Source of the DNA: Victivallis vadensis
GTDB taxonomy: Bacteria > Verrucomicrobiota > Lentisphaeria > Victivallales > GWF2-50-93
Direction of reading: 5' to 3'
Length of the DNA: 42,176 nt
NCBI GenBank assembly: GCA_020718525.1
Contig: DYRX01000002.1
Coordinates: forward strand, 1-42,176
The notes beneath the pieces were generated by a model that did no database searches, was not told the DNA's origin, and saw only the letters and a list, made by a program, of their open reading frames with translations. This document shows, one piece after another, positions 4,943 through 24,067 of this stretch. How positions within the stretch are numbered: the stretch's first letter is position 1; each line of letters starts with the position of its first letter. Position numbers and translations under genes: made by a program.

Positions 4943-5165
4943 ATTCAGTATTCAACAGCCGCAAACATGCGTATGGCGCTCTCCAAGATAATCTGGGCAT
5001 AATTCTTTCCGCAGACTTCCGCCCCAGATTATCTGATGAAAATTGCACCGTAATTTCCTGCAGGGTGCCGCGATCGTTCGTAAAGATTCGCTGAACGACG
5101 TAGTTCTGTGAATATTTACTTCCTGTCAATATTGCTCCTTGATTGTGCAATCGCAGGAAATTGTC

Positions 5166-5194
5166 TTGACAATATGCGATGTCGGATGATTGTA
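5166..5194 (+). promoter_or_regulatory. Possible sigma-70-type promoter of the 18.8-kb operon (TTGACA with a weak -10)
   Basis: TTGACA at 5166..5171 lies inside the 11-mer CTTGACAATAT, which is shared with 825..835. The only -10 candidate at 17 nt is ATTGTA, which is weak. Confidence 0.25.
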
Positions 5195-5253
5195 CCACAC
5201 TGAAGGTCATAACAGAAGAAGGCAATCTCATAAGTAACGAGGAGGAAGAGGAG

Positions 5254-6273
5254 ATGAAAAGAGTAGCGGAAAAGTTCAGAAATTCACTTGCAGGAGTATT
5301 GGGGATTCCGATCGCGATGCTTCTTGCGGCGCATCTCTTGGGCGGGTGCGTGAAGCAGAAGGTCGTAATTAAGGTGAAGCCTGACGGCTCAGGCAAGATC
5401 GCTTTGACCAGAACCTACAGCAAGGAAGGCACTGCGATGCTCGAACAGCAGATGAATGAGATGAAAAAACAGATGGCCGCCAACCCACAGCCGTACGGGT
5501 TAAGCATGGTTGACCAGGATCCCTTTTACAACGAGGGCATGCTTAAAATGGAGGCCGCGCAGTATGGTGATGATGTCGAGTTCGTCAGTGGGAAGAAAAC
5601 TGAAAGTCCTTCCGGAAAAGGTTGCATCGCCGTATATAAATTTTCAGACATCAACAAGCTGACAATCCCGCTCGGAAACAGTATAGGAGTTCCCAGCGGA
5701 ATGCCGGGCGGCGGGGTTGATTCAATCAGCTTCAAGTTTGAGAAAAAGGGGGATCTGGGATTTCTTAAGATAATTGTCCCGCAGGGAGAAAAAACGGTGG
5801 CGGAAAAGGTGGAAAAGAAGGAAGACAAGACTCCGGCAAAGCAAGAAAATGCGGAATTGCCTGCTTCGTCCACGGCTGATGCCGCTTCCTCGGAGCAGAT
5901 GACGTCCGAAGAGAAAAAAATGTTCAAACAGCAGATGGATGCCGTTGGAAATCCATTTGGCTTCACCGGGAACGAGTCGGAGGATGAAATTACAATGAAG
6001 ATGTTCAAAGGCTTCGGGCTGTCCCTTGCGGTCGAAGTCGAATCCGATATTGTCAAATCGGACGCTTCATATCCGGATGCCAAGAAGAAAAACCGCTTCA
6101 CACTTTACGATATTGACTTTGACACGATGATGAAGGATCCTGGATTCCTGAAAGACATGAGAACTGGCGGCGGCGGAATGGAGGCGATGATGAGGTCTTC
6201 CCCCATGTCGTATTCAGGCAAGCCTGGAGTGGTCTGTGAACCTAAAGAGGAAATAAGCGTGGAGTTCAAGTAA
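5254..6273 (+). CDS. Orphan lipoprotein (339 aa), first gene of the operon
   Basis: I chose ATG 5254 (GGAGGAAGAGGAG upstream) over 5179. The signal peptide plus lipobox reads IPIAMLLAAHLLGGC. I recognise no family; the middle of the protein is Lys/Glu-rich. Confidence 0.7.
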   Translation: MKRVAEKFRNSLAGVLGIPIAMLLAAHLLGGCVKQKVVIKVKPDGSGKIALTRTYSKEGTAMLEQQMNEMKKQMAANPQPYGLSMVDQDPFYNEGMLKMEAAQYGDDVEFVSGKKTESPSGKGCIAVYKFSDINKLTIPLGNSIGVPSGMPGGGVDSISFKFEKKGDLGFLKIIVPQGEKTVAEKVEKKEDKTPAKQENAELPASSTADAASSEQMTSEEKKMFKQQMDAVGNPFGFTGNESEDEITMKMFKGFGLSLAVEVESDIVKSDASYPDAKKKNRFTLYDIDFDTMMKDPGFLKDMRTGGGGMEAMMRSSPMSYSGKPGVVCEPKEEISVEFK

Positions 6274-6275
6274 GA

Positions 6276-9200
6276 ATGAAGAATATCTTTCATTTTGCAG
6301 TCTTTGCCATTGCCGTAGTATTGCTTGCAACATCTTCTTCAGCGCAAAGTGGGGCGCCGACCGAATCGGTAAAGCAACTGCCCGATGGAACCATTGTCAG
6401 GAAGGTCAATGGCGGCACAATAACAATGAAACCGGTAAAGAAGGAAAGCCAGCCTGCCGTCCAGCCGGAGGCAAAGACGGAAGACAGATCAGCAAGCACA
6501 GCCGCAGAGGACTACACAAAGGGATTTGAAAAATTTTCGAAACTCGGGCTTCCGGACGTGAGCAGTGCAGTATACGTCAAATTGAATGCACACGGGCTAA
6601 AATTTTATTCTGGAAGAAACAGCATCTACTGGATAAAAGGGGTGAAAGGCAACGCCTGGATGCTCTCTGAAGACAAGAAAGGCAGAAGCAAATTCGTCAC
6701 CGACGAGTCTTCCGTCGTTGAAGTTCTTGACAGCAAGACATACCAGGAGGAGCGGAGCAAAAAAATTCAGGAAGAGGTAAAAAAACAAAAGGAGTCAGGC
6801 AGTGGTCCGGCAGACATGCAGAACATCTTCATGGACTTCTCAGTGGACATGGAGATATCCGGGGACTGGTTCCCTGTCGATCTCAAAGCCGATGTCCAGT
6901 CGGTGACTAACGCGCTCGTGGAGAAAAACGCCCAGACCGAAAAATACCAAAGATTGATTCATTCCAACGAGATGGGACAGCTTTTTCTATTTGCAATCCA
7001 TGTCAGCCAGAAGGGGATGAAAGATGATGCGAACAAAATTGTCTCCCTTCTTTTCGAGAATGCCGGAGGGAGCAAAAATGTCATTCTCGCGGGGCTCAAT
7101 CAGCTCGCAAATTCCCAGTATGATGATGTCTTCCGCACTTATCAGAAGGATGGAGACATCAAAAATTATTCCAATTCCATAGATGCCCTCCTTGCCAAAT
7201 TTCCAGCAGGCTGGCTATATGCGCCCGCGCTGAAAAAACTTAACGGCATCTTGAAAAACCGCATCGCCGCAAAAACGGCGCCGGAACTGACAGGCGAGGG
7301 CATGACCGACGAGGACAAGAAGCTCGCCTCGGAGCTGGCGGATGCCAAGGACAGCGACATGAAGTCCATGAACGGCTATGGCTCAATGATGATGTTCCGT
7401 GGAGCTTACGGTTCAGGGGGACTCTGGATTTTCGGCGACACCGCCAGCAAAGGGAGAAATAACGCCAGAAAAAATGAGGAGCCTGGAGCATTCCAGAAAA
7501 TCCAGATGAGAGGCATGAAGTCTGTGCCACTGCTGATAGCCCTCCTGAAAGACGATTGGCCTACGCAAATTATGGATGATTCAAATTCTCGATTTTCTTT
7601 TTCGGATCTCAGTTCTGTAAGCGAATCGGAGCTGAAAAACATCTATCGTTCAATTTCGCGCCCTCTCACCCGCGGGGAAATCGCACAACAGATGCTGGCG
7701 TCAGCGTTATTGTCAGAAGACGGGGAAAATTCAATGTTCAGGCATTCAATTTACGATGAAGACAACCTGGATGAATTCGCGGAAACATGCCGCGAATGGT
7801 ACATTGCCAACAAGGACAAATCTCAATTTGATCTTGCCAAGAGCTATCTTGAAAATGGGGACGATTTCCAGAAGCAGGAGGCTGTCTCGCGGCTGATCAG
7901 CCTATGCAAAGGCAAAGATGCAAGCCTTGTAGAGGAATATTTTCTGAACGCCGAACAGCCCATGAACAGCATCAATCTTGTCTTCAAGTATGTCGAGGGG
8001 AGAGGTTCCGAGGCAAAACCTTTCGTAGATAAATTCATAAAGCTCATAAAACCTGACAAGGAACAAAACGGAAAAGAAAAAGGGAAGAACGGAAAAAAAA
8101 CGACCGCTGTGATCAAGAAAATAACAGAGGTGCAGGGAAAGGAGTCTGCAACGGAAGCGGCAAAGACTGAGACTCTTGTTGTTGTTGACGGCGTAGAAGC
8201 CATATCGCCTGCGACTCTCGGGGAGCTCGTTAAAGCTGAAGCAGAGGACTCGTTCGATGACGAGTTCTTTATCGAAGATAACGACAGTCAGAACGAATAC
8301 AGGCAGAAGGAGATAGAAGGCGCGGTGAAGCACCTCAACATGCTGGTGTCCAACGAAAATGTCTCCGATATCGTCGCCAAAATAGCCGCATCGGCATCGG
8401 CGGACGATGAAGTCGTCAATTCATATGAGATGCGGACGCTGGCGATGAAAAAACTTAAAAAGGAGCCTATTGACAAGGCTGTCAGCATTGTTTTGGAAGA
8501 GGCGATAAAGAGCAATGCGAAGGAAGCCCGCGTGCGGCTTCTCAACATGCTTCCCGATCTCAACGCAGACGATAAAAGTGCCAGCGTCTATTCGTTCTCC
8601 GCTGTCTTCGGCGATGAGGACGCAGAGGAAGGCGACGGTAAAGCCGTAAAAGAGAAGGCGGATATTTCAAAGACAAGGCATCTGTGGGAAAAGATAATCA
8701 ATGATTTAAAGGATGAAGAACTTGATTCTGCCATTATTGCGGTCGAAATGCTTTACGGAAGCCCTGATGAGACACCTGGGAGAACTGCCTTTTCATATGA
8801 CCGCCGGTTTAAACTTTCCTCCCTGTTGAGCCAGCTTGGTCCTAAATTCAGAGCTTTCGCAGTGGACAGGATGAAACAGCGCATTGCGGGGAAGGTCGAA
8901 AACGAATTGCCGCCGCTTCCTTCCGCAGACAAAGTGGATGACACCAGAAAAAAGGAGATAACCGGGATGCTTATTGGCGCTCCCTCGGAAAATCTTAGAA
9001 AAGTACTAGACGGGCTCAGCTTTGACGAGATGCTTGTTCTTGGAGATCTTGCACAGGACAGCAAGCCGCTCAACGAAAAACTCTTCCCGCTTTCAAATGA
9101 AATAGTCGAAATCAACATGGAATCAAAAACATTGAAAGACGGCGGCAAGATTCTGGCGCTGAAAGGTGGTCAACTGCAGAAAAGCCATGTCCAGATGATT

Positions 9201-9695
9201 CAGGAGCTCTGCCTGACGGCAGTCTCCGCCCTTCCTCCGGAAACTGAATTCAGTATCCGCATCATAAGACGGCCGACATGTAGCGGAACTGAAATTAAAC
9301 TGACAGAGAAAATCCGTGTGCAGAAAGCAAAGGCAGGCGGTGCCGTCCCGCCATCGCCGGAGCGGAAATTCCTCCACGCCAGCGTATATGGAATGCCGGA
9401 TATCCGCGAAAGTAGCGGATGGATGATTAAAGCTGAAGATGCAGGCGGAACTGCCGCAAAGGACGGATCTAAAAGCGAGGAGGATGAACTCCTTGCCGAA
9501 ATGGAAGATGAATTTAGGGACGAGCAGAACGAAGAATACATCAAGTCGCAGAAAAATTTCTGGACGAAAGTAGAGGAATTCTGCAGTCCGAAGTCCATCG
9601 CTCCCAGCGGCGGTGGAATTTACTTCAGCAAAGGCGCAGGCAATTCCGGCTATTTCCGGTCTTATCGCGGCAACAGCCACATTATTTTAGATTGA
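6276..9695 (+). CDS. Orphan secreted protein, 1139 aa, Lys/Glu/Asp-rich and predicted mostly helical
   Basis: It starts 2 nt after the previous stop. The signal peptide is MKNIFHFAVFAIAVVLLATSSSAQS. It is one long uninterrupted ORF, and I recognise no domain in it. Confidence 0.75.
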   Translation: MKNIFHFAVFAIAVVLLATSSSAQSGAPTESVKQLPDGTIVRKVNGGTITMKPVKKESQPAVQPEAKTEDRSASTAAEDYTKGFEKFSKLGLPDVSSAVYVKLNAHGLKFYSGRNSIYWIKGVKGNAWMLSEDKKGRSKFVTDESSVVEVLDSKTYQEERSKKIQEEVKKQKESGSGPADMQNIFMDFSVDMEISGDWFPVDLKADVQSVTNALVEKNAQTEKYQRLIHSNEMGQLFLFAIHVSQKGMKDDANKIVSLLFENAGGSKNVILAGLNQLANSQYDDVFRTYQKDGDIKNYSNSIDALLAKFPAGWLYAPALKKLNGILKNRIAAKTAPELTGEGMTDEDKKLASELADAKDSDMKSMNGYGSMMMFRGAYGSGGLWIFGDTASKGRNNARKNEEPGAFQKIQMRGMKSVPLLIALLKDDWPTQIMDDSNSRFSFSDLSSVSESELKNIYRSISRPLTRGEIAQQMLASALLSEDGENSMFRHSIYDEDNLDEFAETCREWYIANKDKSQFDLAKSYLENGDDFQKQEAVSRLISLCKGKDASLVEEYFLNAEQPMNSINLVFKYVEGRGSEAKPFVDKFIKLIKPDKEQNGKEKGKNGKKTTAVIKKITEVQGKESATEAAKTETLVVVDGVEAISPATLGELVKAEAEDSFDDEFFIEDNDSQNEYRQKEIEGAVKHLNMLVSNENVSDIVAKIAASASADDEVVNSYEMRTLAMKKLKKEPIDKAVSIVLEEAIKSNAKEARVRLLNMLPDLNADDKSASVYSFSAVFGDEDAEEGDGKAVKEKADISKTRHLWEKIINDLKDEELDSAIIAVEMLYGSPDETPGRTAFSYDRRFKLSSLLSQLGPKFRAFAVDRMKQRIAGKVENELPPLPSADKVDDTRKKEITGMLIGAPSENLRKVLDGLSFDEMLVLGDLAQDSKPLNEKLFPLSNEIVEINMESKTLKDGGKILALKGGQLQKSHVQMIQELCLTAVSALPPETEFSIRIIRRPTCSGTEIKLTEKIRVQKAKAGGAVPPSPERKFLHASVYGMPDIRESSGWMIKAEDAGGTAAKDGSKSEEDELLAEMEDEFRDEQNEEYIKSQKNFWTKVEEFCSPKSIAPSGGGIYFSKGAGNSGYFRSYRGNSHIILD

Positions 9696-9734
9696 ATTTT
9701 CATACCTGGAACACGAACTCATCACGGAGGCTTT

Positions 9735-10714
<980 letters not shown>

Positions 10715-10718
<4 letters not shown>

Positions 10719-11590
10719 GCAGACCTCTCTACAAGTATCTGAAGCCGGAGGATATCCGCAAGCTCTCGAGCTTCGAGTTCGCTCCGAAACTTCTTGTAGA
10801 GGGCTTCTTTGCGGGTCGGCACTGTTCCCGCATGCAGGGGCTTTCAACCGAATTCCGCGACTACCGCCAGTATGTTTCCGGCGATGACATCTCCTTCCTG
10901 GACTGGGGCGTATTTGCAAGGACCGACCGCTATTATGTGAAGACATACGAGCAGGAGACCAACACTGTATGCCATATTTTTCTTGACAGCAGTGCTTCCA
11001 TGGGCTTCGGAACCAAAGCGACAAAGCTCGAGTACGGATCTTTCTTTGCCGCCGCGCTCTGCTATCTTGTCACCAGGGGCGGCAACACTGTCTCCCTGCA
11101 GATATTCGATGACCGCATCAGGAATTTCAATCCGCCGGGAAGCACCCCCTCGCATCTGCACAATCTCCTGCATGTCCTCGAGAAAAACAGACCCGGGAAC
11201 GCCACAAATTTGGGGGAGGCGCTCAGACGCTCATTCCCCCTCCTCCATCGCCGTGGTTCGCTGGTGATAATCTCAGATTTCTTCGACGATCCGGTTGAAA
11301 TATTCTCCGCATTGAACCAGTATGTCCACAGAGGCTTCAAGATCTATCTTTTCCACATACTAGCGCCTGAGGAGCTTGACCTTGGAACAAGAGGACTGCT
11401 CAAATTCGTTGACATGGAGAACGACTCTGCGCTCACGGTCCATACGGACAGCATCAGGCCGCACTACGAAAGGGCTATCGCAGGCCACATTGGAGCGATG
11501 CGCGCGCTTTCATGCAGGAAAAAAGTCGAATATACTTTCGCGACAACAGAGACACATTATTTTTCCCTTTTCGAAAAATTGGTCAAATGA
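10715..11590 (+). CDS. DUF58-family protein (VWA-like fold), the usual MoxR partner
   Basis: The GTG start overlaps the MoxR stop (GTGA). Motifs are FRDYRQYVSGDDISFLDW and a DxSxS-like IFLDSSASMGFG. Confidence 0.9.
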
Positions 11591-11600
11591 GCTGATTCCA

Positions 11601-13625
11601 ATGGAAATAGTATTTCAAAATCCGGGATTTCTGCCCTTTCTCCTGCTTGCGGCGGCGCCACTGATTCTCCATCTTTTCGCGCGCGCCAGACCACCTGTGT
11701 ATATGTTCAGCTCAAACAGCCTTCTGCGGAAAATATTGAAATACAGGATGCGGCTAAAAAAACCGCGCGACATGATTCTCCTCGCTGTCAGGACTCTTCT
11801 TTTCTTTTCGCTTGTCATGCTTTTCCTTCTGCCGCTTCTTTTCATGAACAGCAATTTTGCGGCGCCTTTCGAGAAAAAGACAGTGCTTATTATTGTAGAT
11901 GCGACCGCTTCGACCAGCTATCTCGAGGGAGGGCAGACCCGCTTTGCCGCGGGGTGCGCGGAAGCCTCCGAAATAATTTCCGGGCTTGGTTCCGGCGACA
12001 GGGCCAATGTGATATGGCTGAAATATCAGTCATCGGCAGTCTATCCAGCCCCCGGACCGAACATGAATTTTCTACAGCAGGAGCTTCGCAGAGCCTCTGT
12101 AACTGCCGAGACATCAGACATATCCAGCGCCGTCAGCCTCGCTGTCGGCATGCTTGAAAAAGCAGAAGGGCGCAGGCAGATATGCGTCATTTCCGACTTC
12201 CAGGCGTCTGAATGGGGTGAAATCGCCGTGAAAATTCCGAAAACCGTTGACGTCATGACAATATCCACTGGCAAGACTGCGGCGTCAAACCAGTCTGTCG
12301 CGAGGGTTTTCAGCCGCCCGGCAAGTCCGGTCATTGGCGAAGATCTGACGCTGTTCTGCGAGATTCGCAATTTTTCACCTGAGCCGCGCCAATGCACCGT
12401 CTACTTGAAAACCTCTGAAATCCGCCATGAAAAGGAAATCTCAATACCCGCATGGGGGTCTGCGGTGCCAGGCTTCAAATGCTCATTTAAGAATTCCGGA
12501 ATCGTGCCGTATAAATTTGAAATTGGCGAGGATCTCTTCCCGGACGACAATTCAAGGTGGGGCATTCTAAATGTCAGAAAATTCATCAGCGCCGGCGTAG
12601 CCGCAGGAGACGAGAAAAATCGCTCATGCTGGTACAAGGCATTGAAATCAATCGGATGGATCAAGACGGACACAGTTGATATTGACACTATTGGGAAGTC
12701 GCAGGCTGACATCGTTTTCCTCTCTGCATGGAACGGAGAGAACCCGGAAGCGCTTGCATCTTGCATAGGAGCAGGGCACAACGTCGTATGCTGTCCGGCG
12801 GACGGCGCCGATCTCGCAAAATTCTTCAGCATATTGGTTCCGGGCTCCGCCCCCCGGGATACGAAATTTGCGCTCGAAAGCTCTAAAAAGCCGCGCAAAA
12901 TGAAGCTCGCAAGGCAGGACGCGGAGATATTCTCCCTTTTCGCGACGGGAGAATTTGGAGATCCGCTGAAAGGTAATTTCATGACGAGGCTGAATTTCCC
13001 GCCGCTGGCGCTTCCTCCCACCGGAGATGTCCTTCTCGAATATGACGACGGCATCCCGGCATTGGCATCCTACCGCCATGGCAGAGGCGTTTTTTACTTC
13101 TGGAATATTTTTCTTGGAGAAGAGCGCAGTGACTGGGCTTCGAGTCCGCAGTTTGTGCCCTTTATGGGAGAGCTTGTGATGAACGTCTGCCGCGATCCGC
13201 TGGATCTTCCGGAGAAGACAAGCTTTTCTCCAGGGCAAAAAATGGTGTTTGATCTGAAAGGCGACGAATCAGCCGAAGATCTGTCTCTCGCCGGCGAGGA
13301 TGAAAAAATATTGCCGGTGCATCAGATCCTTTCCGCGGATAAGAGATTTTTTGTCAGCGATCCGGCGGAGGAATGCGGTCTCTACACCTGGAAACACAGG
13401 GACAGCACACTGGGATATTCGACTGTGGATTTCGTGCCGATCGAGTCGGATCTCAGGACACTGCCAGAGCAGACGATAGCAAAAATCGGCGCAATATCAT
13501 CCTCCGGTGGCGGAGGAATAAGGGACTTCGTCCATGGAATTGAAGTCTGGCCGTATTTCCTCCTTTTAGCCGTTCTGCTCATTCTGCTTGAAGGTTCTGT
13601 CGCCTTATGGATGGAGAAAACATGA
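11601..13625 (+). CDS. BatA-type N-terminal double-transmembrane domain protein with a degenerate VWA-like module and a C-terminal TM anchor
   Basis: I chose ATG 11601 over the track start at 11376, which overlaps the DUF58 gene. The N-terminus FQNPGFLPFLLLAAAPLILHLFARAR matches the aerotolerance-regulator N-terminal pattern. VLIIVDATASTS is also present, and the last 25 aa are hydrophobic. Confidence 0.8.
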   Translation: MEIVFQNPGFLPFLLLAAAPLILHLFARARPPVYMFSSNSLLRKILKYRMRLKKPRDMILLAVRTLLFFSLVMLFLLPLLFMNSNFAAPFEKKTVLIIVDATASTSYLEGGQTRFAAGCAEASEIISGLGSGDRANVIWLKYQSSAVYPAPGPNMNFLQQELRRASVTAETSDISSAVSLAVGMLEKAEGRRQICVISDFQASEWGEIAVKIPKTVDVMTISTGKTAASNQSVARVFSRPASPVIGEDLTLFCEIRNFSPEPRQCTVYLKTSEIRHEKEISIPAWGSAVPGFKCSFKNSGIVPYKFEIGEDLFPDDNSRWGILNVRKFISAGVAAGDEKNRSCWYKALKSIGWIKTDTVDIDTIGKSQADIVFLSAWNGENPEALASCIGAGHNVVCCPADGADLAKFFSILVPGSAPRDTKFALESSKKPRKMKLARQDAEIFSLFATGEFGDPLKGNFMTRLNFPPLALPPTGDVLLEYDDGIPALASYRHGRGVFYFWNIFLGEERSDWASSPQFVPFMGELVMNVCRDPLDLPEKTSFSPGQKMVFDLKGDESAEDLSLAGEDEKILPVHQILSADKRFFVSDPAEECGLYTWKHRDSTLGYSTVDFVPIESDLRTLPEQTIAKIGAISSSGGGGIRDFVHGIEVWPYFLLLAVLLILLEGSVALWMEKT

Positions 13626-15847: not shown

Positions 15848-15848
15848 C

Positions 15849-18647
15849 ATGAATACGAATCCTGTGGCAATTTTCCAGAAAAGACTCGCTTCCTTGAGAA
15901 GGCGGAGGCAGGCGGCTCTTCTCGCTATTGACATTCTGGCGCTGTCCGGAGAGGCGCTGATGCTTCTGGCAATATACGCGCTCGCCGACTTCTTTTTGGC
16001 GTTTCCTCCCGCCGCCCTTGTCATAATTGACGCTTCCATCGTTGTCCTCCTGCTTCTGCATTTTATCCTCCGCGCAAGCAGGACGGCATCCTATTCGGAT
16101 GGAAAAATGTCGGAAGATCTCGACAAGGCGTTCGAACACCGCAGGCAGGATATCCTGAGCGCATATGAACTGCGGAAAGAAATTCGGAGCCGGGACGGAG
16201 ACACCGATATCCGCGAATATCTCGTCGCCCGCGTGATGAAGAAGGCAAGCCACATTATTGAGGAAGCCGGATTCAGACAAATCATGCCGTTCCGCGAATT
16301 TCGCAACGTCGCAAAAATGTTTCTTGTCCAGGTGCTTGTCTGCGCGGCAATACTTGGCATTCCGCGCCATGCGAGCGCCATTATTCTCGCGAGAATTTTT
16401 CATCCGTTCGATGACAATCCCCCATACAGCTCCTACACCTTTGAAATAGATCCGGCGGAGCCGGAGGTCATATACGGTGGAAACATTGAGATTTCAGCGA
16501 CTGTCAGAGGAGCAAAGACGCTCTCACAGGTCTGGCTGATGACCAGGGACGAGACCGGAATGATTCACAAAGCACCATGCTTCCGCGAGGGCGGAAACAA
16601 GTTTGTCCAGCGCATAGAAAAAGTCACAGCTCCGCTCAGTTTCTGCTTCTCGACGGGCAGGGCTAGAAGCAGATGGACTAATCTGGAGCTCCTCCTCCAG
16701 CCGCAGATATCCATGGCTCAGATCAGTCTGGCTCCGCCCGCCTACAGCAGGCTTCCAGCAAAAACTTTTTATGCTGGTGCCGCCGAACTGCAGGGATTGC
16801 CCGGCACCATTGCGGAACTCTCGATAAGCAGTAACAGACCCCTTTCCCATGGAAGACTTTCTCTGAAATACAAGAAGACAGGAGCGACAGAAATCATAGC
16901 CGCAGAAAAAAGCGGCGACAAGAGTCTGCTTTTCAGATGGGAGATAAAGGAAGAGGCCCAGCTCAAGGCGTATGTCAGCGATTTTATCGGCACTGAATGC
17001 CGTGAACCGCTATTGATGGCGCAGACTTTGAAGGAAGATGCGCCCCCCAGGATCCATCTGCTGTCGCCGGAGACATTCCTGCTAGCCACCCCGTCCGTCA
17101 AAGTACCTGTATCTGCACGTGCAGAAGATGATATCGGCATTAAACGGATAGATTTTGTCAGATCCGTGACTGGCTTCAGAGACAGGGCTGTCTTTGCAGG
17201 TCCTCGGGAACACACCCGCAGTTACAGTTATGAAACATCTCTAGATCTCAAGGTACTCGGAGTAGTGCCGGGAGAGACAATAGAACTATATTTCGAAGCG
17301 TCTGATTTCAATCCGAGCATGCTCGGCTATGCGGTTTCAGATGTTGCGAAGATATCTATAATTTCCGAAGAGGATTATGCCAGACAGCTCAGAGACAGGA
17401 CAGCCTGCGAACAGTTCTTTGAACGCTACAGAGTCATGGAGGCGGAACTGCTTGAGCTGAAAAAACTTCTATCCGAAATGAAACAATCCCTTCAGAAAGG
17501 GGAGCTTGACTTGGAGGGAAAGGGATCCATGATAAAGAAAATAAAGGAGGCAAACGACCGTGCTAGAAATTTATTTGGCGGGCTGGAGAAAGACTTTCCA
17601 ATATATGACATCGAAAAGGAGCATGGGGGGATTCTGGAAGAATTCACAAAGTTATTTGATAAGAATGAGCTGGCGATTTCCCAAATGAAGCCTTCAGATT
17701 CCAATCCAGATCTGGAAACAAAGATTGATGAGCTTCTGAATCAGACGGAGTCTTCGCAGGGGAGCATGGACGAGATGACAAAAGATGCCGGAGAACTCGA
17801 AAAACTAGTCAAGGTGCTTAGGCACTCAGTCAAGTTCATGGCTCTCCTCGGCCAGCAGGAATATCTTGCGAGGCGCCTCCAACGCTATGCCTCGGAAAAC
17901 ACACCCGTTGCAGGCAGTCCAATGCTAAAGACATTGGGAATCAAGGAGATGGAAATCAGAAAAGAGCTGATGCTTCTGTCTTCACAGCTTGCGGAAGATG
18001 CCAAGGCAATCACGGACGCGCAATATGACGACCTAAAGAAAAGCTCTCTGAAATTTTCCAGGAGGATCGATGAACTTGAGATTCCCGAGCTGATGAGGAA
18101 ATCGGCTGAGACGGCGGAAAGCGGCAATGGCGAAAGAGCCCATCACCATGGAAAGCTCGCCCTGGAAAAAATGCGCCAGATAGCATCGGAATTCGAAGAG
18201 TCGGAATTTGGATCGTGCTGTCTCGGCAACGAGGGGAGATTCAATCCTTCGTTCAGCCTAAGGACTAGGGACAGAATCCAGAAGACCCTCGGCGAGCTTC
18301 TCCAGTCGCTGATCTGCCAGCAGAAAGGCGGAAGGGGAGCAGGATCAGGGCTCGGAATCGGCGGAGGGGGGCTCGGGAATCTGAATGACGGCTATTCCGC
18401 TGGCGATTATTCGCCGCTGAAAATTCCAATCATCGGTCCGGACAGACTCGAGCTTTCGCAGTCCGAAAATACAGGAGCTTCCAACGATGATGGCGCAGTC
18501 GCGGCGGGGAAATCCGGCATCGGAGCGGAGAACAGGGAACTGCTCAAAATTGATGATCGCACAAAAACTGGAACCGAAAGCATTCCGCTCGACGAAGTCC
18601 CGGAAAAATACATAGATGCAGTGAAAAACTATTTTGGTCAAAACTGA
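15849..18647 (+). CDS. Large membrane protein (932 aa), DUF4175-like: N-terminal TM hairpin, beta-rich middle, coiled-coil C-terminal half with a Gly-rich patch
   Basis: It starts 1 nt after the previous stop. The TM segment is LAIDILALSGEALMLLAIYALADFFLAFPPAALVIIDASIVVLLLLHFIL. The family assignment is tentative and rests on position in the operon and on architecture. Confidence 0.65.
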   Translation: MNTNPVAIFQKRLASLRRRRQAALLAIDILALSGEALMLLAIYALADFFLAFPPAALVIIDASIVVLLLLHFILRASRTASYSDGKMSEDLDKAFEHRRQDILSAYELRKEIRSRDGDTDIREYLVARVMKKASHIIEEAGFRQIMPFREFRNVAKMFLVQVLVCAAILGIPRHASAIILARIFHPFDDNPPYSSYTFEIDPAEPEVIYGGNIEISATVRGAKTLSQVWLMTRDETGMIHKAPCFREGGNKFVQRIEKVTAPLSFCFSTGRARSRWTNLELLLQPQISMAQISLAPPAYSRLPAKTFYAGAAELQGLPGTIAELSISSNRPLSHGRLSLKYKKTGATEIIAAEKSGDKSLLFRWEIKEEAQLKAYVSDFIGTECREPLLMAQTLKEDAPPRIHLLSPETFLLATPSVKVPVSARAEDDIGIKRIDFVRSVTGFRDRAVFAGPREHTRSYSYETSLDLKVLGVVPGETIELYFEASDFNPSMLGYAVSDVAKISIISEEDYARQLRDRTACEQFFERYRVMEAELLELKKLLSEMKQSLQKGELDLEGKGSMIKKIKEANDRARNLFGGLEKDFPIYDIEKEHGGILEEFTKLFDKNELAISQMKPSDSNPDLETKIDELLNQTESSQGSMDEMTKDAGELEKLVKVLRHSVKFMALLGQQEYLARRLQRYASENTPVAGSPMLKTLGIKEMEIRKELMLLSSQLAEDAKAITDAQYDDLKKSSLKFSRRIDELEIPELMRKSAETAESGNGERAHHHGKLALEKMRQIASEFEESEFGSCCLGNEGRFNPSFSLRTRDRIQKTLGELLQSLICQQKGGRGAGSGLGIGGGGLGNLNDGYSAGDYSPLKIPIIGPDRLELSQSENTGASNDDGAVAAGKSGIGAENRELLKIDDRTKTGTESIPLDEVPEKYIDAVKNYFGQN

Positions 18648-18658
18648 AGGAGTGCAGA

Positions 18659-19339
18659 ATGAAAAGTATACCTGGCATTGCTTTTATTTATTCATCCCTA
18701 TTTTTCTTCGCATCAATTGCTTTGCTGTTTACGGCGGACTTGTCAGCCAAGGATGAAGTTGTCCAGTGCGCGAACCTGATCTATGCCGGAAATAACACGT
18801 CGAGATGCTTCAGCGATGAGTTTCTCAGCATAGTACAGCGAAAAACCGCCATATCTACAGAGAGAAGATTCAAGAGCGTAAAACTAGATTCGGAAGAGCT
18901 TTTCAAATATCCTTTTGCCATGATGACGGGCGAAGCTGATTTCATATTCAGCCAGAAGGAGAGGGAAAACCTGAAGAGGTATCTGGCAAGCGGCGGCTTC
19001 ATGCTCGTCTCCGCCGGATGTTCTAGCAGGAACTTCGACCAGGCTTTCCGCAGGGAGATAAAAGCAGTCTTCAAAGATGCCAAACTCGAGTCAATCCCGA
19101 TCGAGCATCCTCTTTTCAGGACGGTCAATGATATAAGGAAATTGGAATTGAGCCATGAATCCAGCGAAAAGGTTTCCCTCGAAGGACTTCAGATAAACGG
19201 CAAAATCGTACTCATATATTCCCGGCATGGCCTGAATGACACTGCCAACACTCGCGGCTGCTGCTGCTGTGGAGGCAATGAACTCAGAAACGCCTCGGAT
19301 ATAAATGTCAACATATTGGTCTATGCATTACTGCATTGA
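18659..19339 (+). CDS. DUF4159-family exported protein with a CCCC motif
   Basis: It has a signal peptide and the DUF4159-like pattern YPFAMMTGEADFIFSQKERENLKRYLASGGFMLVSA. Four consecutive Cys codons lie at 19259..19270. Confidence 0.75.
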   Translation: MKSIPGIAFIYSSLFFFASIALLFTADLSAKDEVVQCANLIYAGNNTSRCFSDEFLSIVQRKTAISTERRFKSVKLDSEELFKYPFAMMTGEADFIFSQKERENLKRYLASGGFMLVSAGCSSRNFDQAFRREIKAVFKDAKLESIPIEHPLFRTVNDIRKLELSHESSEKVSLEGLQINGKIVLIYSRHGLNDTANTRGCCCCGGNELRNASDINVNILVYALLH

Positions 19340-19366
19340 AGGCGGAACCCGGAAGACAGGAGACAA

Positions 19367-22300
19367 ATGAATAGAGCGGCAAAGCAATTGTCAGCATCCT
19401 TCCTATTTGCGATGCTCATTGTTTCCACAGCGCATTCCAACGTTCCCTTAGGGAAAACGCCGAAAATCCCGGAGGGGGTGCCTGGCGGCATTTTATTGGA
19501 AGCGCCTGCCGACATTGCAGGAAAAGGCAAATCAGAGGAACTTCCACCCATCTGGCAGAAATCTCTTTCGACCGCCCTGATCATGGCAGGCATGGAGTAC
19601 CGTCCAGTCTTCCTTTTCTTCCATTCCCCAGAATGTCCGTGGTGTGCAAGGCTCAAGGAACTTTTTGAGGACAAGGATATTGAGTCCGTGCTTAAACATT
19701 TTATTCTCGTGGAATGCGATGTGAACAAAGATCCCGCCACCGCCCATAATTATCAGGTGCAGGGAGTCCCGCTGATTCTTTTCATTTCCGGAGACGGCCG
19801 TATCAGAGGCGCGGTTCAGGGATTTACAACAAAAGATGAACTCCTCAGTGCCATAAGATCTGTAATCAGCAACCAGATACAGGTCAGGAAGGATAAGGAA
19901 TCTCTTATGTTGATAAGCAAGCTGGATCAGAATTCCTTTCCCGACGAAAGATGGCCGGATCTGATCCTGCTCATCGGCGACAGAGCTGACGGCAAGGAGG
20001 AGATTGTGAAGCGCATCATGAAACTCTCGCCGTTCCCGAAGGAGAAAATTGTCGCCCTGCTTGAGCACAGGCTTCTTGCCGTCAGGACTGGAGCTATCGA
20101 AATACTCGAAGAGATAGTCGGAGACGAGTTCTCCTACGATCCGTGGCGGAGCAGAGAGGAGAACGCTGACACCATTGCAAGATGGAAGGAATGGGCGGCC
20201 AATAAAGATCCCGTTTCCACTGACAGGCATTCTCCGCTGACAAAGGAAAAATGCGATCGGCTTCTGAACGAGATTATATCCGACAATAAAGACCGCTATT
20301 CAAGGGCGCTAAGAAGCCTTGAAGACTGTGGAGACGGCTGCATCGCGGCGATTGATGAGTTTATCGCCTCGCATGGCTCCCTTTCCGAAGGCGCAAAAAA
20401 CCGGCTGAAAGAAGTAAAGTACATGACAATCCTGTCTGACACGGCGGGAATAGATCCCGGTCCACTGGCGCATCAACTGCTTTCAGGGAGTCTTGACAAC
20501 AGACTCAGGGCAGTGCTGGAACTGAAGAAGGCGGGGCTCCGCGGGGTTCCGATCCTGAAGGACTTCCTTGAACATCCAGAGCCAGTGTTAAGGGAGACTG
20601 CGATAGACACTATTGTTGATACAGGCGGAAGGATGGCGGCGCACATAATTGAAAATCATATCGCGTCGGAAAAGGACAGCGATGTGCTCTTCTCGATATT
20701 GAAAAGTCTTGGGAAGCTGAAAACTAAGACAAGCGCGAAGATACTTGCTTCGTTCCTTTCAAACGGGAACGAGGATCTGGCTGTCATTGCATTGAAAGGC
20801 CTGGCGGACATCAGGGCGGCCAGCATGATAGATCAGATTGCCGGCTGTCTTGATGATCCAAGATGGAGAGTCAAGGTAGCGGCGCTTGAAGCAATCACCG
20901 AACTGGGCGACAAAGGCAAAAGCGCTCTCACAAAAAGCGCGGTGGCAAGGACAAAAATTGAATCCCTGATGAACGACAGCGACGAATATGTGCGCTTCAA
21001 GTCTGTCCTTGCCCTGGCTCACTTCACGTCCGGCGGAACCATGAGGAAGCTCGAGGAAGCCTTCATGAAGGATGACAGCATAAAAGGCGCGGTTATAAGC
21101 TCGTATGGCAGTAGGGACTTATGCATCCCTGACAAATTTGTGAAGGGCCTGGTCGGCAAGGATTCTGCAGTTCTTCTCACGGTGGTCCGGGCGCTTGACA
21201 AGTGCGACGAGAAACAGCTCCATCTCGCTAAATTTCTAGCCGCAAATACGAATCCGGACATATCGGTTCCGGCGGCGGCATTCATCGCGAAAAACGGTTT
21301 TTCCGATCCTGACTCCATTGCGCTCATGGCGGAACTTCTGAAAAATGGCAAGAGGGAAGCTGTTCTGGCCGTGCTGAAAAATCTAAAGATACCAGACAGC
21401 AATTCGAGAAGCTCCGACTATCGGAACGTGCTCGAAGAACTTTCCTTCGCCAGCTCTTCTGAAGGAAGCTCGGATTCCGCCAATTCGTCTATTCCCCCCG
21501 GAACAAGCAAGGATCTGGAGGATCTTTTTGCCGCGTTTGAAAGCGGTGTAGACACTGCAAAGCCTGCCAAGACCGGGAGCCGAGTCGAGATCCCCGCCTC
21601 CGCAAAGCCGGCGCCGCCAGCGGAAACAATATCAGAGCAGAAGGAAAAGCCTCCAGATCTGAATGATATTTTCGAGGCGTTCGGCGACTCCCCCACTCCT
21701 ACTGCATCCTCAGGGAAAGCGGATAAACCAGGAAGAATCTCGCAGAACGACTTTTTCAGCGAAATAAAAAAACTGGCAATGGAGAGCGACGACGAGGAAC
21801 TGAAATTTGCCGCGGCATTAGTGATGATAAGGAAGGGGGACGAGGAAATACTTCCCCTGATGGAAAATCTTTTCCCGTCCCAGACCGAGGAGCTAAGAGC
21901 CGAAATTGTGGACTCGGCTGACAGCGGAACCCTTGCCGCAGGCAAATTCCTTCTCAAGGCGCTTTCGGATCCTTCCATGCAAGTCAGGAAAAATGCGGCG
22001 GCAGGGCTCCTAAAATCGAAACACCCGGAACAGCTTGCAGAATTCCTGAACTCAATTGGAAGGCCGGATTCAAAGCTGAAAATCTATGAATTGGACTGGA
22101 CCAGAATCAGCCTCGGGAACCACTATGACACTAGCGTAAAAGATAAAAAGCTTCGAGCCGTCCTCAGATCCTGGGCGATAAATACGGTGAAAAACAATCC
22201 CGATCCATCATTTAAAGACGCCGCTCTTTTTGTAATCGGAATGACATGGGCCAAAGACGACGGAAAAATCGTGTCGGAATATTTCTCGTCGGAAAATGTC

Positions 22301-24067
22301 TGGCTCCGACGCGCCGCATACTACACACTTTCAAATTCGCTTGACGCTTTCATACTGCAGATACCGGACATGCTCAAGGACAAGTCAGACCGGATAAGGG
22401 AGCTAATTCCGGCGATCGCGTCCGCAAAATACGGCGAGAGCTCCAGATACAGCTCGGAATCTGTCTTTTTCTTTGACGAAAAGAATTTTTTCAGGAACTA
22501 CAACTATGCCAATATCCGGTCATACTCATCACGACGCCCAAAAATGAATCCAGCTGTGAGGGATGCGCTTTTCATGCTAACTTCAGACGAGTCAATGAAA
22601 ATCCGCCTAGATTCGTTTCTGGCTCTTCTTGACGCCCGTGAACCGCTTGATCTCAGGGAACTGATCCGAACGGCAAACTCCTTTCCGGATCAGAAAACGA
22701 TCTCTTCTAAAATCACCAATTTCATAGAAAAGAACTACAAAAGCCTCGGGCGGAATTTTGAGGTGCTTCTGTCATACCTTGACGAGGAAAGCGTCTCGCC
22801 TGAAGATCTTGCAAAGATATACAAGCATTTCAATGTTGACAGCGAATCGCTGAGCTCCTCGCTGGATTTCAAGGCGTTTTACAGAAAATCCGATCCCGTA
22901 GAGGCGGAATTTATTCTTTCGGCAGAAGCCTTGGCGGAACCCGCGCTGGAGAAGATGGAAAATCCGCTCATCGTATATTTTGACAAGCCCGGATGCTCGG
23001 ACTGCACCCGTGTGAAAAAAATCCTCCGCGAAATGAAGGAGCTTTTCCCGGATCTTGAAATCGAGACATACAATATTTCAAAAGTAGATGCCATGCGCCT
23101 TAACGAGGCATACAGCGAAAACGCAGGCACGCCGACTTCGACAAGACTTGTCGCACCATCGGTTTTTTCTGGGAAAGGCTATCTTGTCAAATCGCAGATA
23201 GATTATGACGGCATCAGAAGGCTCCTTTCCGAATCGGCTCCGCTCCCGAGAACTTCGTGGCGCATAAGTCCAGCCAGCGCGGAAATTTTCCGGAACGACA
23301 CCAAGCTCGCCGAACGTTTTTCCAACATAACTTGGCTTGTCGTGGCTTCCGGCGGTTTCTGGGACGGTCTAAATCCGTGCGCCTTTGCGGCTATGATATT
23401 TTTCATTTCATATCTGCGGATTGCAAGGAGGAGTCCCGCTGAAATCGCACATGTTGGAATGGCATTTGTCGCTGGAGTGTTTATCGCATATTATCTCCTC
23501 GGACTCGGCATCTCTGAAATCATCTACCATATATCTTTCTATGAAAATGTTAAAACGTGGTTTGACCGAGCTATGATAGCAATGGTCTTCATTCTTTTTG
23601 TCATGAGCGTATATGACGGAGTCATGAGTGCCAGGGGCCGCACTGAAGATATAAGCCTACAGCTTCCGGAAAGACTGAAGGAGAAGATCAGAACCACGAT
23701 AAGGATAGGGGCAAGGCATCGCCGTTTCATCTCCGCCGCATTCGTCACGGGGCTGACAATTTCTTTCCTCGAGTTTGCATGCACAGGGCAGGTATATCTT
23801 CCGGTAATTCAATATATGCTTGAAAGCGGCGGCAAAAAACTTGCCGCACTGTATTATCTGCTTGTCTACAACGTCGCCTTCGTCCTTCCCCTAGTCATTG
23901 TTTTCATCATCGCATTTTCCGGAATGAAAAATGAAAAACTTGTAGATCTTATGCGAAAGAACGCCGCAATCGTCAAATTTGCGACTGCGCTTCTCTTCCT
24001 CCTCATACTCGTTTTCCTTATATCTCAAAACAAATTTATGATTGCGTCTATTTTTCGCCTGAACTGA
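19367..24067 (+). CDS. 1566-aa exported multidomain protein: thioredoxin-like (CPWC), long HEAT/armadillo-like array, low-complexity linker, second thioredoxin/glutaredoxin-like domain (CSDC) and a DsbD/CcdA-like 6-TM domain
   Basis: AGGAGA precedes the ATG and a signal peptide is present. FFHSPECPWCARLKE places the Cys pair at 19634..19645. There are repeated PBS-lyase/HEAT-like units (DDPRWRVKVAALEAITELGD, DSDEYVRFKSVLALA, DPSMQVRKNAAAGL, and others). VYFDKPGCSDCTRVKKIL places the second pair at 22994..23005. Six C-terminal TM helices carry Cys in TM1 (GLNPCAF, Cys codon 23378..23380) and TM4 (FACTGQ, Cys codon 23780..23782). Confidence 0.85.
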   Translation: MNRAAKQLSASFLFAMLIVSTAHSNVPLGKTPKIPEGVPGGILLEAPADIAGKGKSEELPPIWQKSLSTALIMAGMEYRPVFLFFHSPECPWCARLKELFEDKDIESVLKHFILVECDVNKDPATAHNYQVQGVPLILFISGDGRIRGAVQGFTTKDELLSAIRSVISNQIQVRKDKESLMLISKLDQNSFPDERWPDLILLIGDRADGKEEIVKRIMKLSPFPKEKIVALLEHRLLAVRTGAIEILEEIVGDEFSYDPWRSREENADTIARWKEWAANKDPVSTDRHSPLTKEKCDRLLNEIISDNKDRYSRALRSLEDCGDGCIAAIDEFIASHGSLSEGAKNRLKEVKYMTILSDTAGIDPGPLAHQLLSGSLDNRLRAVLELKKAGLRGVPILKDFLEHPEPVLRETAIDTIVDTGGRMAAHIIENHIASEKDSDVLFSILKSLGKLKTKTSAKILASFLSNGNEDLAVIALKGLADIRAASMIDQIAGCLDDPRWRVKVAALEAITELGDKGKSALTKSAVARTKIESLMNDSDEYVRFKSVLALAHFTSGGTMRKLEEAFMKDDSIKGAVISSYGSRDLCIPDKFVKGLVGKDSAVLLTVVRALDKCDEKQLHLAKFLAANTNPDISVPAAAFIAKNGFSDPDSIALMAELLKNGKREAVLAVLKNLKIPDSNSRSSDYRNVLEELSFASSSEGSSDSANSSIPPGTSKDLEDLFAAFESGVDTAKPAKTGSRVEIPASAKPAPPAETISEQKEKPPDLNDIFEAFGDSPTPTASSGKADKPGRISQNDFFSEIKKLAMESDDEELKFAAALVMIRKGDEEILPLMENLFPSQTEELRAEIVDSADSGTLAAGKFLLKALSDPSMQVRKNAAAGLLKSKHPEQLAEFLNSIGRPDSKLKIYELDWTRISLGNHYDTSVKDKKLRAVLRSWAINTVKNNPDPSFKDAALFVIGMTWAKDDGKIVSEYFSSENVWLRRAAYYTLSNSLDAFILQIPDMLKDKSDRIRELIPAIASAKYGESSRYSSESVFFFDEKNFFRNYNYANIRSYSSRRPKMNPAVRDALFMLTSDESMKIRLDSFLALLDAREPLDLRELIRTANSFPDQKTISSKITNFIEKNYKSLGRNFEVLLSYLDEESVSPEDLAKIYKHFNVDSESLSSSLDFKAFYRKSDPVEAEFILSAEALAEPALEKMENPLIVYFDKPGCSDCTRVKKILREMKELFPDLEIETYNISKVDAMRLNEAYSENAGTPTSTRLVAPSVFSGKGYLVKSQIDYDGIRRLLSESAPLPRTSWRISPASAEIFRNDTKLAERFSNITWLVVASGGFWDGLNPCAFAAMIFFISYLRIARRSPAEIAHVGMAFVAGVFIAYYLLGLGISEIIYHISFYENVKTWFDRAMIAMVFILFVMSVYDGVMSARGRTEDISLQLPERLKEKIRTTIRIGARHRRFISAAFVTGLTISFLEFACTGQVYLPVIQYMLESGGKKLAALYYLLVYNVAFVLPLVIVFIIAFSGMKNEKLVDLMRKNAAIVKFATALLFLLILVFLISQNKFMIASIFRLN

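Follow-up and report, generated by a model that had tools for sequence, protein, structure and literature searches.

A Bat-like MoxR envelope operon of Victivallis vadensis and a possible thiol relay to its DUF4159 protein

The locus compared with Bat and related operons

Bat-like cassettes, in which a MoxR-type AAA+ ATPase is encoded with DUF58 and VWA proteins, are to our knowledge widespread and have been tied to aerotolerance, stress resistance, and virulence in several pathogens, with a molecular mechanism lacking for more than 25 years. Here, we analyze a 42,176-nucleotide (nt) stretch of a Victivallis vadensis contig (DYRX01000002.1, positions 1 to 42,176, referred to as the window), in which 9 open reading frames (ORFs) in series on the plus strand span 5254-24067 and carry such a cassette: MoxR is gene 3, DUF58 gene 4, a BatA-type and a second VWA protein are genes 5 and 6, and a long membrane protein, a DUF4159 protein, and a thioredoxin-HEAT-DsbD-like fusion follow as genes 7, 8, and 9. 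The closest described systems are the Bat operons of Bacteroides fragilis (BatI), spirochaetes, Francisella, and Riemerella, which share with this cassette an MRP-type MoxR followed by DUF58, the tight packing of the genes, the BatA N-terminal double transmembrane (TM) segment, and membrane proteins with a periplasm-facing VWA domain and its metal ion-dependent adhesion site (MIDAS). Also shared is the theme of reducing power for the periplasm and of oxidative stress, to which Bat has been tentatively linked. The TPR, BatD, and SH3 proteins of Bat operons (BatB to BatE types) were not found among the 9 window proteins at E ≤ 0.01, nor, with the threshold relaxed to E ≤ 5, in genes 1, 5, 6, and 7 and at both ends of gene 9, nor in 45 homologs of genes 5 to 7. 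Instead, the window cassette has a 932-amino acid (aa) DUF4175-like protein, a cysteine-rich DUF4159 protein, a HEAT/Trx/Grx/CcdA-like fusion (Trx, thioredoxin; Grx, glutaredoxin), and the optional genes 1 and 2.

A second point of comparison is the operon RL3499-RL3502 of Rhizobium leguminosarum, cited in PMC5700661 as an MRP-type MoxR/DUF58/VWA operon linked to envelope integrity. Compared from the literature only, operons of this type share MoxR, DUF58, and VWA with the window, consist of 4 genes, and have no redox module. Our literature search found no description of the 9-gene composition or of CcdA or DsbD linked to MoxR/Bat cassettes, in line with the earlier statement, made from the DNA alone in what we call the first-pass annotation, that no described system of this composition is known; in the library searched, DUF4159 itself was mentioned only in a Pfam release note. 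By its core, the locus falls among the MRP-type MoxR/DUF58/VWA operons, as a variant and not as a categorically new system, and the gene 9 family is already present in cultured, publicly sequenced Verrucomicrobia with its domains automatically annotated. The reading that we tentatively favor, and which we hold to be a real possibility rather than a likelihood, is that the region is a Bat-like envelope operon of bacteria of the PVC (Planctomycetes-Verrucomicrobia-Chlamydiae) group with a built-in thiol relay whose target would be DUF4159.

The conserved unit and its terminal fusion gene

An alignment of gene 9 relatives scanned against one genome per GTDB species returned 77 loci in 77 species genomes. 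The carriers belong to Lentisphaerota (Victivallales, Lentisphaeria) and Verrucomicrobiales (Luteolibacter, Haloferula, Rubritalea, Akkermansiaceae), with further ones among some Opitutales, Omnitrophota, and Phycisphaeraceae. The nearest relative of the window protein, from a Lentisphaeria metagenome-assembled genome, is 37% identical to it, and the window MoxR and DUF4159 proteins score highest against loci labeled Victivallales or Lentisphaerae or against unlabeled metagenome loci, which points to a Lentisphaerota-like PVC organism without a near neighbor among sequenced genomes. No Bacteroidota locus turned up, although Bacteroidota were not specifically searched and one locus, L037, carries an unchecked label of Cryomorphaceae, a Bacteroidota family.

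Gene order was read by tblastn of the 9 window proteins against the loci and their 10-kb flanks, with DUF4159 adjacency counted where at least 900 nt of upstream sequence was present (67 loci). Genes 3, 4, 5, 6, 7, 8, and 9 are all present with their order kept at 38 loci, and DUF4159 lies directly 5′ of gene 9 at 66 of the 67 informative loci, L084 being the exception; the family-wide median intergenic distances from gene 3 to gene 9 are 3, 1.5, −4, 15, 1, and 13 nt. Neither a conserved tenth gene nor the flanks of the window were found next to the cassette across loci. Because the order is shared, the adjacency of DUF4159 and gene 9 is kept, and the neighbors are not conserved, genes 3 to 9 form the conserved unit, and since flanking and downstream genes vary among loci, the unit ends at gene 9. 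The first-pass annotation had regarded gene 9 as an unrecognized addition at the 3′ end, which has to be given up: in Verrucomicrobiota and Lentisphaerota it is the regular terminal member of the cassette.

Several loci depart from this pattern in ways that we record without further weight. At L001, a DDE transposase (8140-9231) sits between the gene 7 region and DUF4159 in an otherwise intact cassette, and at L053, from a Victivallis-like assembly shared with L009, the 4 kb that precede gene 6 do not contain genes 3 to 5. In 3 Planctomycetota loci of the Phycisphaeraceae (L080, L082, and L086), DUF4159 is followed by a shorter protein (1115-1133 aa), a relative of the gene 9 HEAT region that has neither a Grx nor a membrane module, and 2 further conserved genes (approximately 550 and 580-600 aa) that are absent from other lineages come next.

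The thioredoxin-HEAT content assigned to gene 9 in the first pass is borne out by Pfam (HEAT_2 1.8e-25, Thioredoxin_2 1.2e-14, Glutaredoxin 4e-10). The N-terminal Trx domain occurs in approximately 40% of family members, mainly of the Lentisphaerota type, with the Verrucomicrobiales homologs beginning after it, and its CPWC cysteines C90 and C93 are kept in 29/65 and 25/65 relatives. The Grx-like domain matches Pfam Glutaredoxin in 27 of 34 homologs, with the family motif KPGCxxC, and C1210/C1213 are found in 61/65; the 2 membrane cysteines, C1338 and C1472, are kept in 54/65. A scan detected 5 hydrophobic segments in the membrane domain and the first was read from the sequence, giving 6 in total. 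The distribution of lysine and arginine would put residues 1 to 1320 on the periplasmic side and the loops rich in lysine and arginine in the cytoplasm, with the N terminus out, in agreement with the topology of CcdA.

Whether this membrane domain deserves the name "DsbD-like", as had been suggested, depends on the level of comparison, since the window protein is unmatched in Pfam but the family profile supports homology. A profile of the C-terminal module built from 34 sequences aligns with Escherichia coli DsbD over 255 columns (hhalign 91%, E 1.1e-6), setting NPC over TPC and ACTGQ over SPCTT so that the 2 membrane cysteines of DsbD are matched, while control comparisons with the E. coli membrane transporters DcuA and YjeH gave 0.2% and 0.1%. 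Individual homologs match Pfam DsbD_2 in 3 of 34 cases (best 1.3e-5) and DsbD_TM in 1 of 34 (2.5e-5), and the homolog cluster carries the automatic IMG name [quoted passage not shown]. The window membrane domain has a single direct database match, a weak one (E 3.9e-4) with the ArsG family of arsenical efflux permeases; searches of the PDB with the C-terminal module, by sequence and by profile, returned the Trx/Grx domains only and left the membrane domain unmatched, and tblastn of the module against plasmids returned one unannotated Roseburia protein only. The profile evidence supports a membrane domain homologous to DsbD with the catalytic cysteines retained, too divergent for curated thresholds.

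With DsbD and CcdA, gene 9 shares the six-helix core, the predicted outside N terminus, the aligned cysteines, and a CxxC domain of Trx fold on the periplasmic side. It differs from them in that the Trx-fold domain precedes the membrane domain, in the approximately 1000 residues of HEAT and sometimes a second Trx domain upstream, in reading ACTGQ for Pro-Cys in helix 4, and in its presumed client, which would be DUF4159 and not cytochrome c or DsbC. If gene 9 were instead a general supplier of periplasmic reductant, for cytochrome c maturation or for envelope repair, its CcdA-like and Trx domains would have become fused to a HEAT protein beside the cassette, would have no specific link to DUF4159, and would simply travel with the cassette. 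The usual role of CcdA homologs is indeed in cytochrome c maturation and in reductive pathways at large, and the IMG label names them as such. We consider this very unlikely, since DUF4159 and gene 9 are neighbors at nearly all informative loci, in several phyla and at a median distance of 13 nt, since the divergent membrane-domain family is conserved jointly with the HEAT fusion, and since no cytochrome c maturation gene lies beside the cassette in the loci read in detail, a feature not surveyed across all loci.

DUF4159 and the proposed thiol relay

Gene 8 matches Pfam DUF4159 (PF13709; 7.1e-30, 104.5 bits, cut-off 25.9), and, MoxR aside, no protein of the unit is better conserved, with 53-66% identity across phyla. 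Its N terminus is hydrophobic and without twin arginine, and the signal peptide looks Sec-type. Seven cysteines (C37, C50, C121, and C201-C204, the last 4 forming a CCCC run) are conserved in 56-59 of 59 sequences. In the AlphaFold2 (AF2) model (predicted local distance difference test, pLDDT, 89), a hydrophobic helix at the N terminus leads into an alpha/beta domain, and the best Foldseek match of the model is 4i66 (E 1.7e-12, TM-score 0.64-0.71; profile E 2.3e-15). Weaker matches include the GIFT domain of IFT52, ThuA-like folds, and class I glutamine amidotransferase (GATase) folds, the structural match to true GATases being weak (E ~1e-2, TM-score ~0.36). In the model, strand 114-119 and helix 124-137 are joined by a GCS turn that contains C121, and by comparison of positions this cysteine would occupy the nucleophile elbow of the GATase-like fold class. 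The protein behind 4i66, Hoch_4089 of Haliangium ochraceum, solved by structural genomics, has the same DUF4159 family and fold; gene 8 differs from it in belonging to a stand-alone exported subfamily with C50 and CCCC.

This subfamily could be delimited in an exhaustive HMMER search for DUF4159, which returned 2205 cluster representatives, with cysteine patterns read by pairwise alignment in the best 150. Among these 150, C121 is kept almost throughout, including in multidomain forms of 400-900 aa, and the combination of C50 and CCCC marks the stand-alone proteins of 210-300 aa; the long forms have C...CPxC or nothing at the position of the CCCC loop. Scores against the Pfam model are lower for the stand-alone subfamily than for the long multidomain proteins.

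Two fusion proteins bear on what a DUF4159 protein of the CCCC type may work with. P0152 (903 aa), found on 2 contigs (L105 3287-5998 and L106 457-3168), joins a gene 7 homolog to a C-terminal CCCC-type DUF4159, with genes resembling genes 5 and 6 before it and a 689-aa HEAT-only protein after it; because both are fused here within a cassette, genes 7 and 8 probably act together physically. P0232 (622 aa), on 2 independent contigs (L103 10001-11869, from NCBI GCA_039033595.1, and L104), consists of VKOR, a DsbA-like domain with CPHC, and a CCCC-type DUF4159. It resembles the bacterial VKOR-thioredoxin fusions that replace DsbB/DsbA, in which a membrane thiol oxidoreductase is likewise joined to a periplasmic domain of Trx fold; these fusions remove electrons, whereas gene 9 would deliver them, and P0232 is not part of a MoxR cassette. 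With a CcdA-like/Grx/Trx neighbor in PVC bacteria and a VKOR/DsbA-like fusion elsewhere, cysteine-rich DUF4159 is associated with membrane thiol-disulfide machinery in 2 independent ways.

The same cysteines could be asked to do something else. MoxR/VWA systems are established in metal-cofactor insertion, as in CoxD/E, NorQ/D, and the chelatases, and if MoxR here also drove the insertion of a metal, then the cysteine cluster of DUF4159 would bind a thiophilic metal and gene 9 would move that metal and not electrons. Three conserved MIDAS motifs, the ArsG match of the window membrane domain at E 3.9e-4, and the cysteine runs, which are typical ligands of soft metals, would all suit this. But the membrane cysteines of gene 9 align with the catalytic cysteines of an electron transporter, DsbD, its soluble domains have Trx/Grx folds and not HMA-type metal-binding ones, and the partner to which DUF4159 is independently fused, VKOR with a DsbA-like domain, is a pure thiol-disulfide system. 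MoxR would moreover be cytoplasmic while DUF4159 is exported, and we judge metal handling to be decidedly unlikely.

From sequence and comparison, genes 3 and 4 are predicted to be soluble cytoplasmic proteins and genes 5 to 7 inner-membrane proteins with the bulk of their VWA, Ig-like, and coiled-coil regions in the periplasm. If the thiol relay is taken as the working model, genes 5 to 9, together with genes 1 and 2 where present, would form a single inner-membrane/periplasmic complex. Electrons from cytoplasmic thioredoxin would pass to the membrane cysteine pair of gene 9 and from there to the CSDC of the Grx-like domain, and to CPWC where it is present; the CxxC domains of gene 9 would then hold the cysteines of DUF4159 (C121, C50, and CCCC) reduced, or would proofread its disulfides. 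MoxR and DUF58 would carry out ATP-driven assembly or remodeling from the cytoplasm, by way of the short loops and tails that genes 5 to 7 expose there. The logic can be likened to that by which CcdA, through ResA or CcmG, serves apocytochrome c, and DsbD serves DsbC. B. fragilis bat mutants were reportedly rescued in part by reducing agents, from which it was proposed that Bat proteins reduce periplasmic proteins or export reducing power (quoted in PMC3557215; PMC11834572). The relay fits this partial rescue. The first-pass annotation had envisaged a chaperone machine that assembles or remodels a redox-active envelope complex; the chaperone part, which derives from knowledge of the MoxR family, was overstated, whereas the redox character is borne out by the conserved CxxC of the gene 9 Grx-like domain, its membrane cysteines and DsbD homology, the cysteines of DUF4159, and the VKOR/DsbA-like fusion.

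A number of observations weigh against such a relay. The membrane domain of the window gene 9 attains no Pfam or NCBIfam cut-off and has no DsbD_TM or DsbD_2 match even at E ≤ 5, and its helix 4 reads ACTGQ in place of the usual Pro-Cys. Approximately 10 members of the gene 9 family lack the membrane domain and approximately 60% lack the N-terminal Trx domain, yet the CCCC of DUF4159 persists; since the redox modules can be dispensed with, it may be the HEAT core that is essential as a partner, with the relay in an accessory role. The fold relative 4i66 carries none of Cys121, CCCC, or the other conserved cysteines of gene 8. VKOR passes electrons to quinone and DsbD/CcdA supplies electrons, so the fusion of DUF4159 with VKOR and a DsbA-like domain speaks for oxidation, the reverse of a reductant line of the DsbD type. 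The cysteines may be paired in structural disulfides instead of making up a reduced active site, and P0232 stands alone, outside any MoxR cassette. The model also requires a cytoplasmic AAA+ ATPase to act upon periplasmic domains. Finally, Leptospira bat mutants are without an oxidative-stress phenotype (PMC3557215).

Some of these points would be accounted for if the HEAT solenoid, made up of the gene 9 core and gene 2, did nothing more than organize a Bat-like structural, adhesive, or signaling complex, with the cysteines forming structural disulfides and the Trx, Grx, and CcdA-like modules serving as optional folding aids. The HEAT core is the sole part of gene 9 common to all relatives, and forms without the membrane or Trx domain, as well as the HEAT-only protein after the gene 7/8 fusion, still trail DUF4159. 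The VKOR/DsbA-like fusion agrees with disulfide formation, gene 2 is another solenoid-like exported protein, and Bat proteins have themselves been proposed to form a periplasmic, possibly signaling, complex (PMC3557215). On the other hand, retention of the membrane domain with both of its cysteines in 54 of 65 relatives, and of the Grx CxxC in 61, is high for an optional aid; C121 lies at an enzyme-like elbow and is kept even in DUF4159 proteins without other cysteines; and an odd number of cysteines, 7, leaves one unpaired. We find a pure scaffold rather unlikely, and continue to prefer, tentatively, a relay to DUF4159.

Layout, remaining genes, and surroundings of the unit

ORF coordinates (Table 1) reproduce exactly the 9-gene, single-strand layout and all 8 junction lengths of the first-pass annotation, which from gene 1 to gene 9 are 2, 39, −4 (GTGA), 10, −4 (ATGA), 1, 11, and 27 nt, and they uphold its view of a tightly packed, co-directional single unit. 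A consensus terminator scan placed no terminator-like site within any of the 8 junctions, as had been claimed; the few matches on the plus strand are all intragenic, and their total is at or below the shuffled expectation. Purine-rich, Shine-Dalgarno-like stretches precede most starts that are free of overlap with the upstream gene, notably those of genes 1, 3, 8, and 9. For gene 1, ATG 5254 is favored by the Shine-Dalgarno-like GAGGAGGAAGAGGAG, and for gene 6, ATG 13622 is preferred because the homolog consensus MNPxxP... aligns there.

Table 1. Coordinates, strand, and description of the features of the operon and its 5′ region (window positions).
Feature	Coordinates	Strand	Description
Non-coding region	4279..5253	.	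975 nt 5′ of gene 1; short ORFs only, none supported
Gene 1	5254..6273	+	339-aa predicted lipoprotein, lipobox LLGGC; facultative
Gene 2	6276..9695	+	1139-aa predicted exported protein of unnamed family; mostly alpha-helical, solenoid-like
Gene 3	9735..10718	+	MoxR-type AAA+ ATPase (MRP-like), cytoplasmic (predicted)
Gene 4	10715..11590	+	DUF58 protein, cytoplasmic (predicted), MIDAS motif DSSAS; GTG start 4 nt inside the MoxR end
Gene 5	11601..13625	+	BatA-type membrane protein: N-terminal double-TM, periplasmic VWA and further ectodomain, C-terminal anchor (predicted)
Gene 6	13622..15847	+	Second membrane-anchored VWA protein (BatB-like VWA), large periplasmic C-terminal region and C-terminal anchor (predicted)
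Gene 7	15849..18647	+	932-aa membrane protein: N-terminal TM segments, Ig-like middle, coiled-coil C-terminal half
Gene 8	18659..19339	+	Exported (predicted) stand-alone DUF4159, class-I glutamine-amidotransferase-like/GIFT-like fold
Gene 9	19367..24067	+	1566 aa: signal peptide, Trx, HEAT scaffold, Grx-like, six-helix DsbD/CcdA-like membrane domain
Gene 9 Trx domain	19553..19861	+	aa 63-165, CPWC at aa 90-93
Gene 9 Grx-like domain	22964..23236	+	aa ~1200-1290, CSDC at aa 1210-1213, directly before the membrane domain
Gene 9 membrane domain	23324..24034	+	aa ~1320-1556, six helices; C1338 (NPC, helix 1), C1472 (ACTGQ, helix 4)

The families named in the first pass for the core, MoxR, DUF58, BatA-N, VWA, and DUF4159, are all recovered by Pfam or NCBIfam. 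Gene 3 matches AAA_3 (3.9e-62, 208 bits, cut-off 27) and AAA_lid_2 (3.2e-15, 56 bits), its Walker A (GVPGLAKT) and Walker B (DEINR) motifs are at least 95% conserved over 34 homologs, and it has the arrangement that characterizes MRP-like MoxR proteins, an ATPase core and lid followed by DUF58 and VWA membrane proteins. Gene 4 matches DUF58 (1.4e-44, 152 bits) and VWA_2 (9.2e-9) and showed no hydrophobic segment in the scan. Gene 5 matches BatA (PF07584; 6.3e-8, 33.4 bits, cut-off 25.9), VWA_2 (8.1e-7, 30.1 bits), and TIGR02226 (27.6 bits, cut-off 23.05), and has 3 hydrophobic segments, the first 2 joined by a loop rich in lysine and arginine; the periplasmic orientation of the VWA domain has been demonstrated experimentally for the BatA-type protein BB0173 (PMC5700661). 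For gene 6, labeled VWA/GATase-like in the first pass, the VWA half holds, with Pfam VWA at 2.5e-5 (25 bits) and PDB matches of the family profile to the VWA domain of 5a8j (1.6e-11), to BatB 3ibs (1.1e-5), and to 4jdu, an "aerotolerance-related membrane protein" (9.9e-5), but GATase1_like appears only faintly, in 2 homologs. The 3 MIDAS-like modules that had been pointed out are present and conserved across homologs at D91/S93/S95 (gene 4), D100/S104 (gene 5), and D77/S79/S81 (gene 6).

Gene 7 belongs to no family above cut-off. DUF4175 (PF13779), to which it had been likened, is unmatched at E ≤ 5 in the window protein and at E ≤ 0.01 in 15 homologs, and the PDB matches of its profile are compositional ones of coiled-coil type only. 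Indirect support for the likeness comes through P0152, whose N-terminal 570 aa align with gene 7 (hhalign probability 100%, E 1.9e-47) and whose gene 7 part reaches 24.4 bits against DUF4175, below the cut-off of 27.3. At the extreme C terminus of gene 7 (18560-18647, ..VPEKYIDAVKNYF..), the residues P918, Y921, A924, and F929 are invariant or nearly so in 16 homologs, following approximately 100 Gly-rich and variable residues; this may be a docking motif.

Genes 1 and 2 stand apart from the core. Gene 1 has no Pfam or NCBIfam match; its N terminus is a single hydrophobic segment terminating in GGC, its homologs share the start GC[IV]K.K..[IV]KVKKDGSG, and they lie directly 5′ of gene 2 homologs in L006, L089, L093, and L094 only. 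Gene 2 has a signal peptide-like N terminus, no curated family match (Pfam, NCBIfam), 15 homologs in the protein database at 21-29% identity, and relatives at 13 loci in metagenome contigs scanned with a 7-sequence alignment. Its AF2 model is largely helical (pLDDT 71.5, predicted TM-score 0.59), and Foldseek against the PDB returned nothing at E ≤ 1e-3, only weak resemblances to HEAT/ARM solenoids with TM-scores of at most 0.2; a comparison with gene 9 (hhalign 8%) rules out gene 2 as its homolog. Gene 2 stands immediately 5′ of MoxR in L007, L088, L089, L091, L092, L094, L095, L096, and L099. L007 runs from gene 2 through to a 1497-aa Trx/Grx/HEAT gene, and L095, which shares its contig with L012 (Lentisphaerae bacterium GWF2_44_16), has genes 2 to 9 complete; in L006, an RHH/PIN toxin-antitoxin pair (6248-6891) is inserted between gene 2 and MoxR, and with this locus gene 2 precedes MoxR in 10 contigs. 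Together with gene 9 at the other end, synteny with the MoxR core was thus found at both ends of the series, contrary to the absence of synteny in every relative that the first-pass annotation had named as grounds for giving up its view. Gene 2 relatives also occur without a MoxR cassette, as tandem paralogs (L009, L097) or singly (L100). Because gene 2 is also found off the cassette and gene 1 relatives at only 4 loci, both are to be seen as facultative additions confined to certain lineages and not as members of the core. The first-pass description of these genes as orphans is right in that no curated family covers them but wrong in that relatives exist, at least 4 for gene 1 and at least 29 for gene 2. 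Between the tandem gene 2 paralogs of L009 (10001-17041) and L097 (9935-16865), there is an AP_endonuc_2 gene encoding a xylose isomerase-like TIM barrel.

The 975-nt non-coding stretch 5′ of gene 1 and a convergent gene adjoining the 3′ end make the 9-gene unit cleanly bounded. From its position, the non-coding stretch is the probable promoter and regulatory region of the operon. It contains an exact 34-nt direct repeat, CTTGTCCTCGCACAAAGGCACGGAGGCACAAAGA, at 4478-4511 and 4690-4723, 212 nt apart and found nowhere else in the window, and beside it a tandem pair of 42-nt units (4729-4770 and 4775-4816) that are 81% identical, part of which forms an imperfect inverted repeat. No sigma-54 consensus was found upstream of gene 1, and no Rfam family was matched in the window.

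Further out, a PAS/sigma-54 activator gene (877-2322) is followed by a near-consensus sigma-54 promoter-like site, TGGCACGCATACTGCT, at 2491-2506 with 1 mismatch, and this by a gene (2905-4278) for an Mrp/NUBPL-type P-loop ATPase fused to a dinitrogenase FeMo-cofactor-binding-like domain. Downstream of the operon, 2 large, divergently oriented ORFs without a Pfam match, 24229-26133 (−, 634 aa) and 26210-28564 (+, 784 aa), are not conserved beside the cassette in other loci. The window also encodes an 812-aa protein (30801-33239) with an MFS_2 transporter domain at residues ~459-793 only and approximately 450 N-terminal residues without a family match, and a protein with an N-terminal methylation motif and DUF1559. 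An anti-phage MoxR/VWA defense system was considered and rejected, PADLOC having no match for genes 1 to 8 and a generic HEAT/ARM model only for gene 9.

By placing a conduit of the DsbD/CcdA type beside an exported protein with 7 cysteines, the PVC variant turns a vague annotation of "envelope stress" into specific, testable questions, and genes 3 to 9 have cultured carriers in Luteolibacter pohnpeiensis KCTC 22041, Haloferula sargassicola NBRC 104335, and Luteolibacter sp. Populi. The variant also gives first functional leads for DUF4159 and for 2 unnamed families, those of genes 1 and 2. A bolder proposal, which we put forward as speculation and think more likely wrong than right by some distance, is that stand-alone DUF4159 of the CCCC type is an unrecognized periplasmic cysteine-dependent enzyme or redox protein and the functional heart of this class of cassettes, served by dedicated membrane thiol conduits, which in PVC bacteria would be a CcdA-like domain carried by a HEAT scaffold and in other lineages VKOR with a DsbA-like domain. 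If this were true, then the PVC operon would be the missing molecular link for the proposal, made in 1999, that Bat supplies reducing power to the periplasm.

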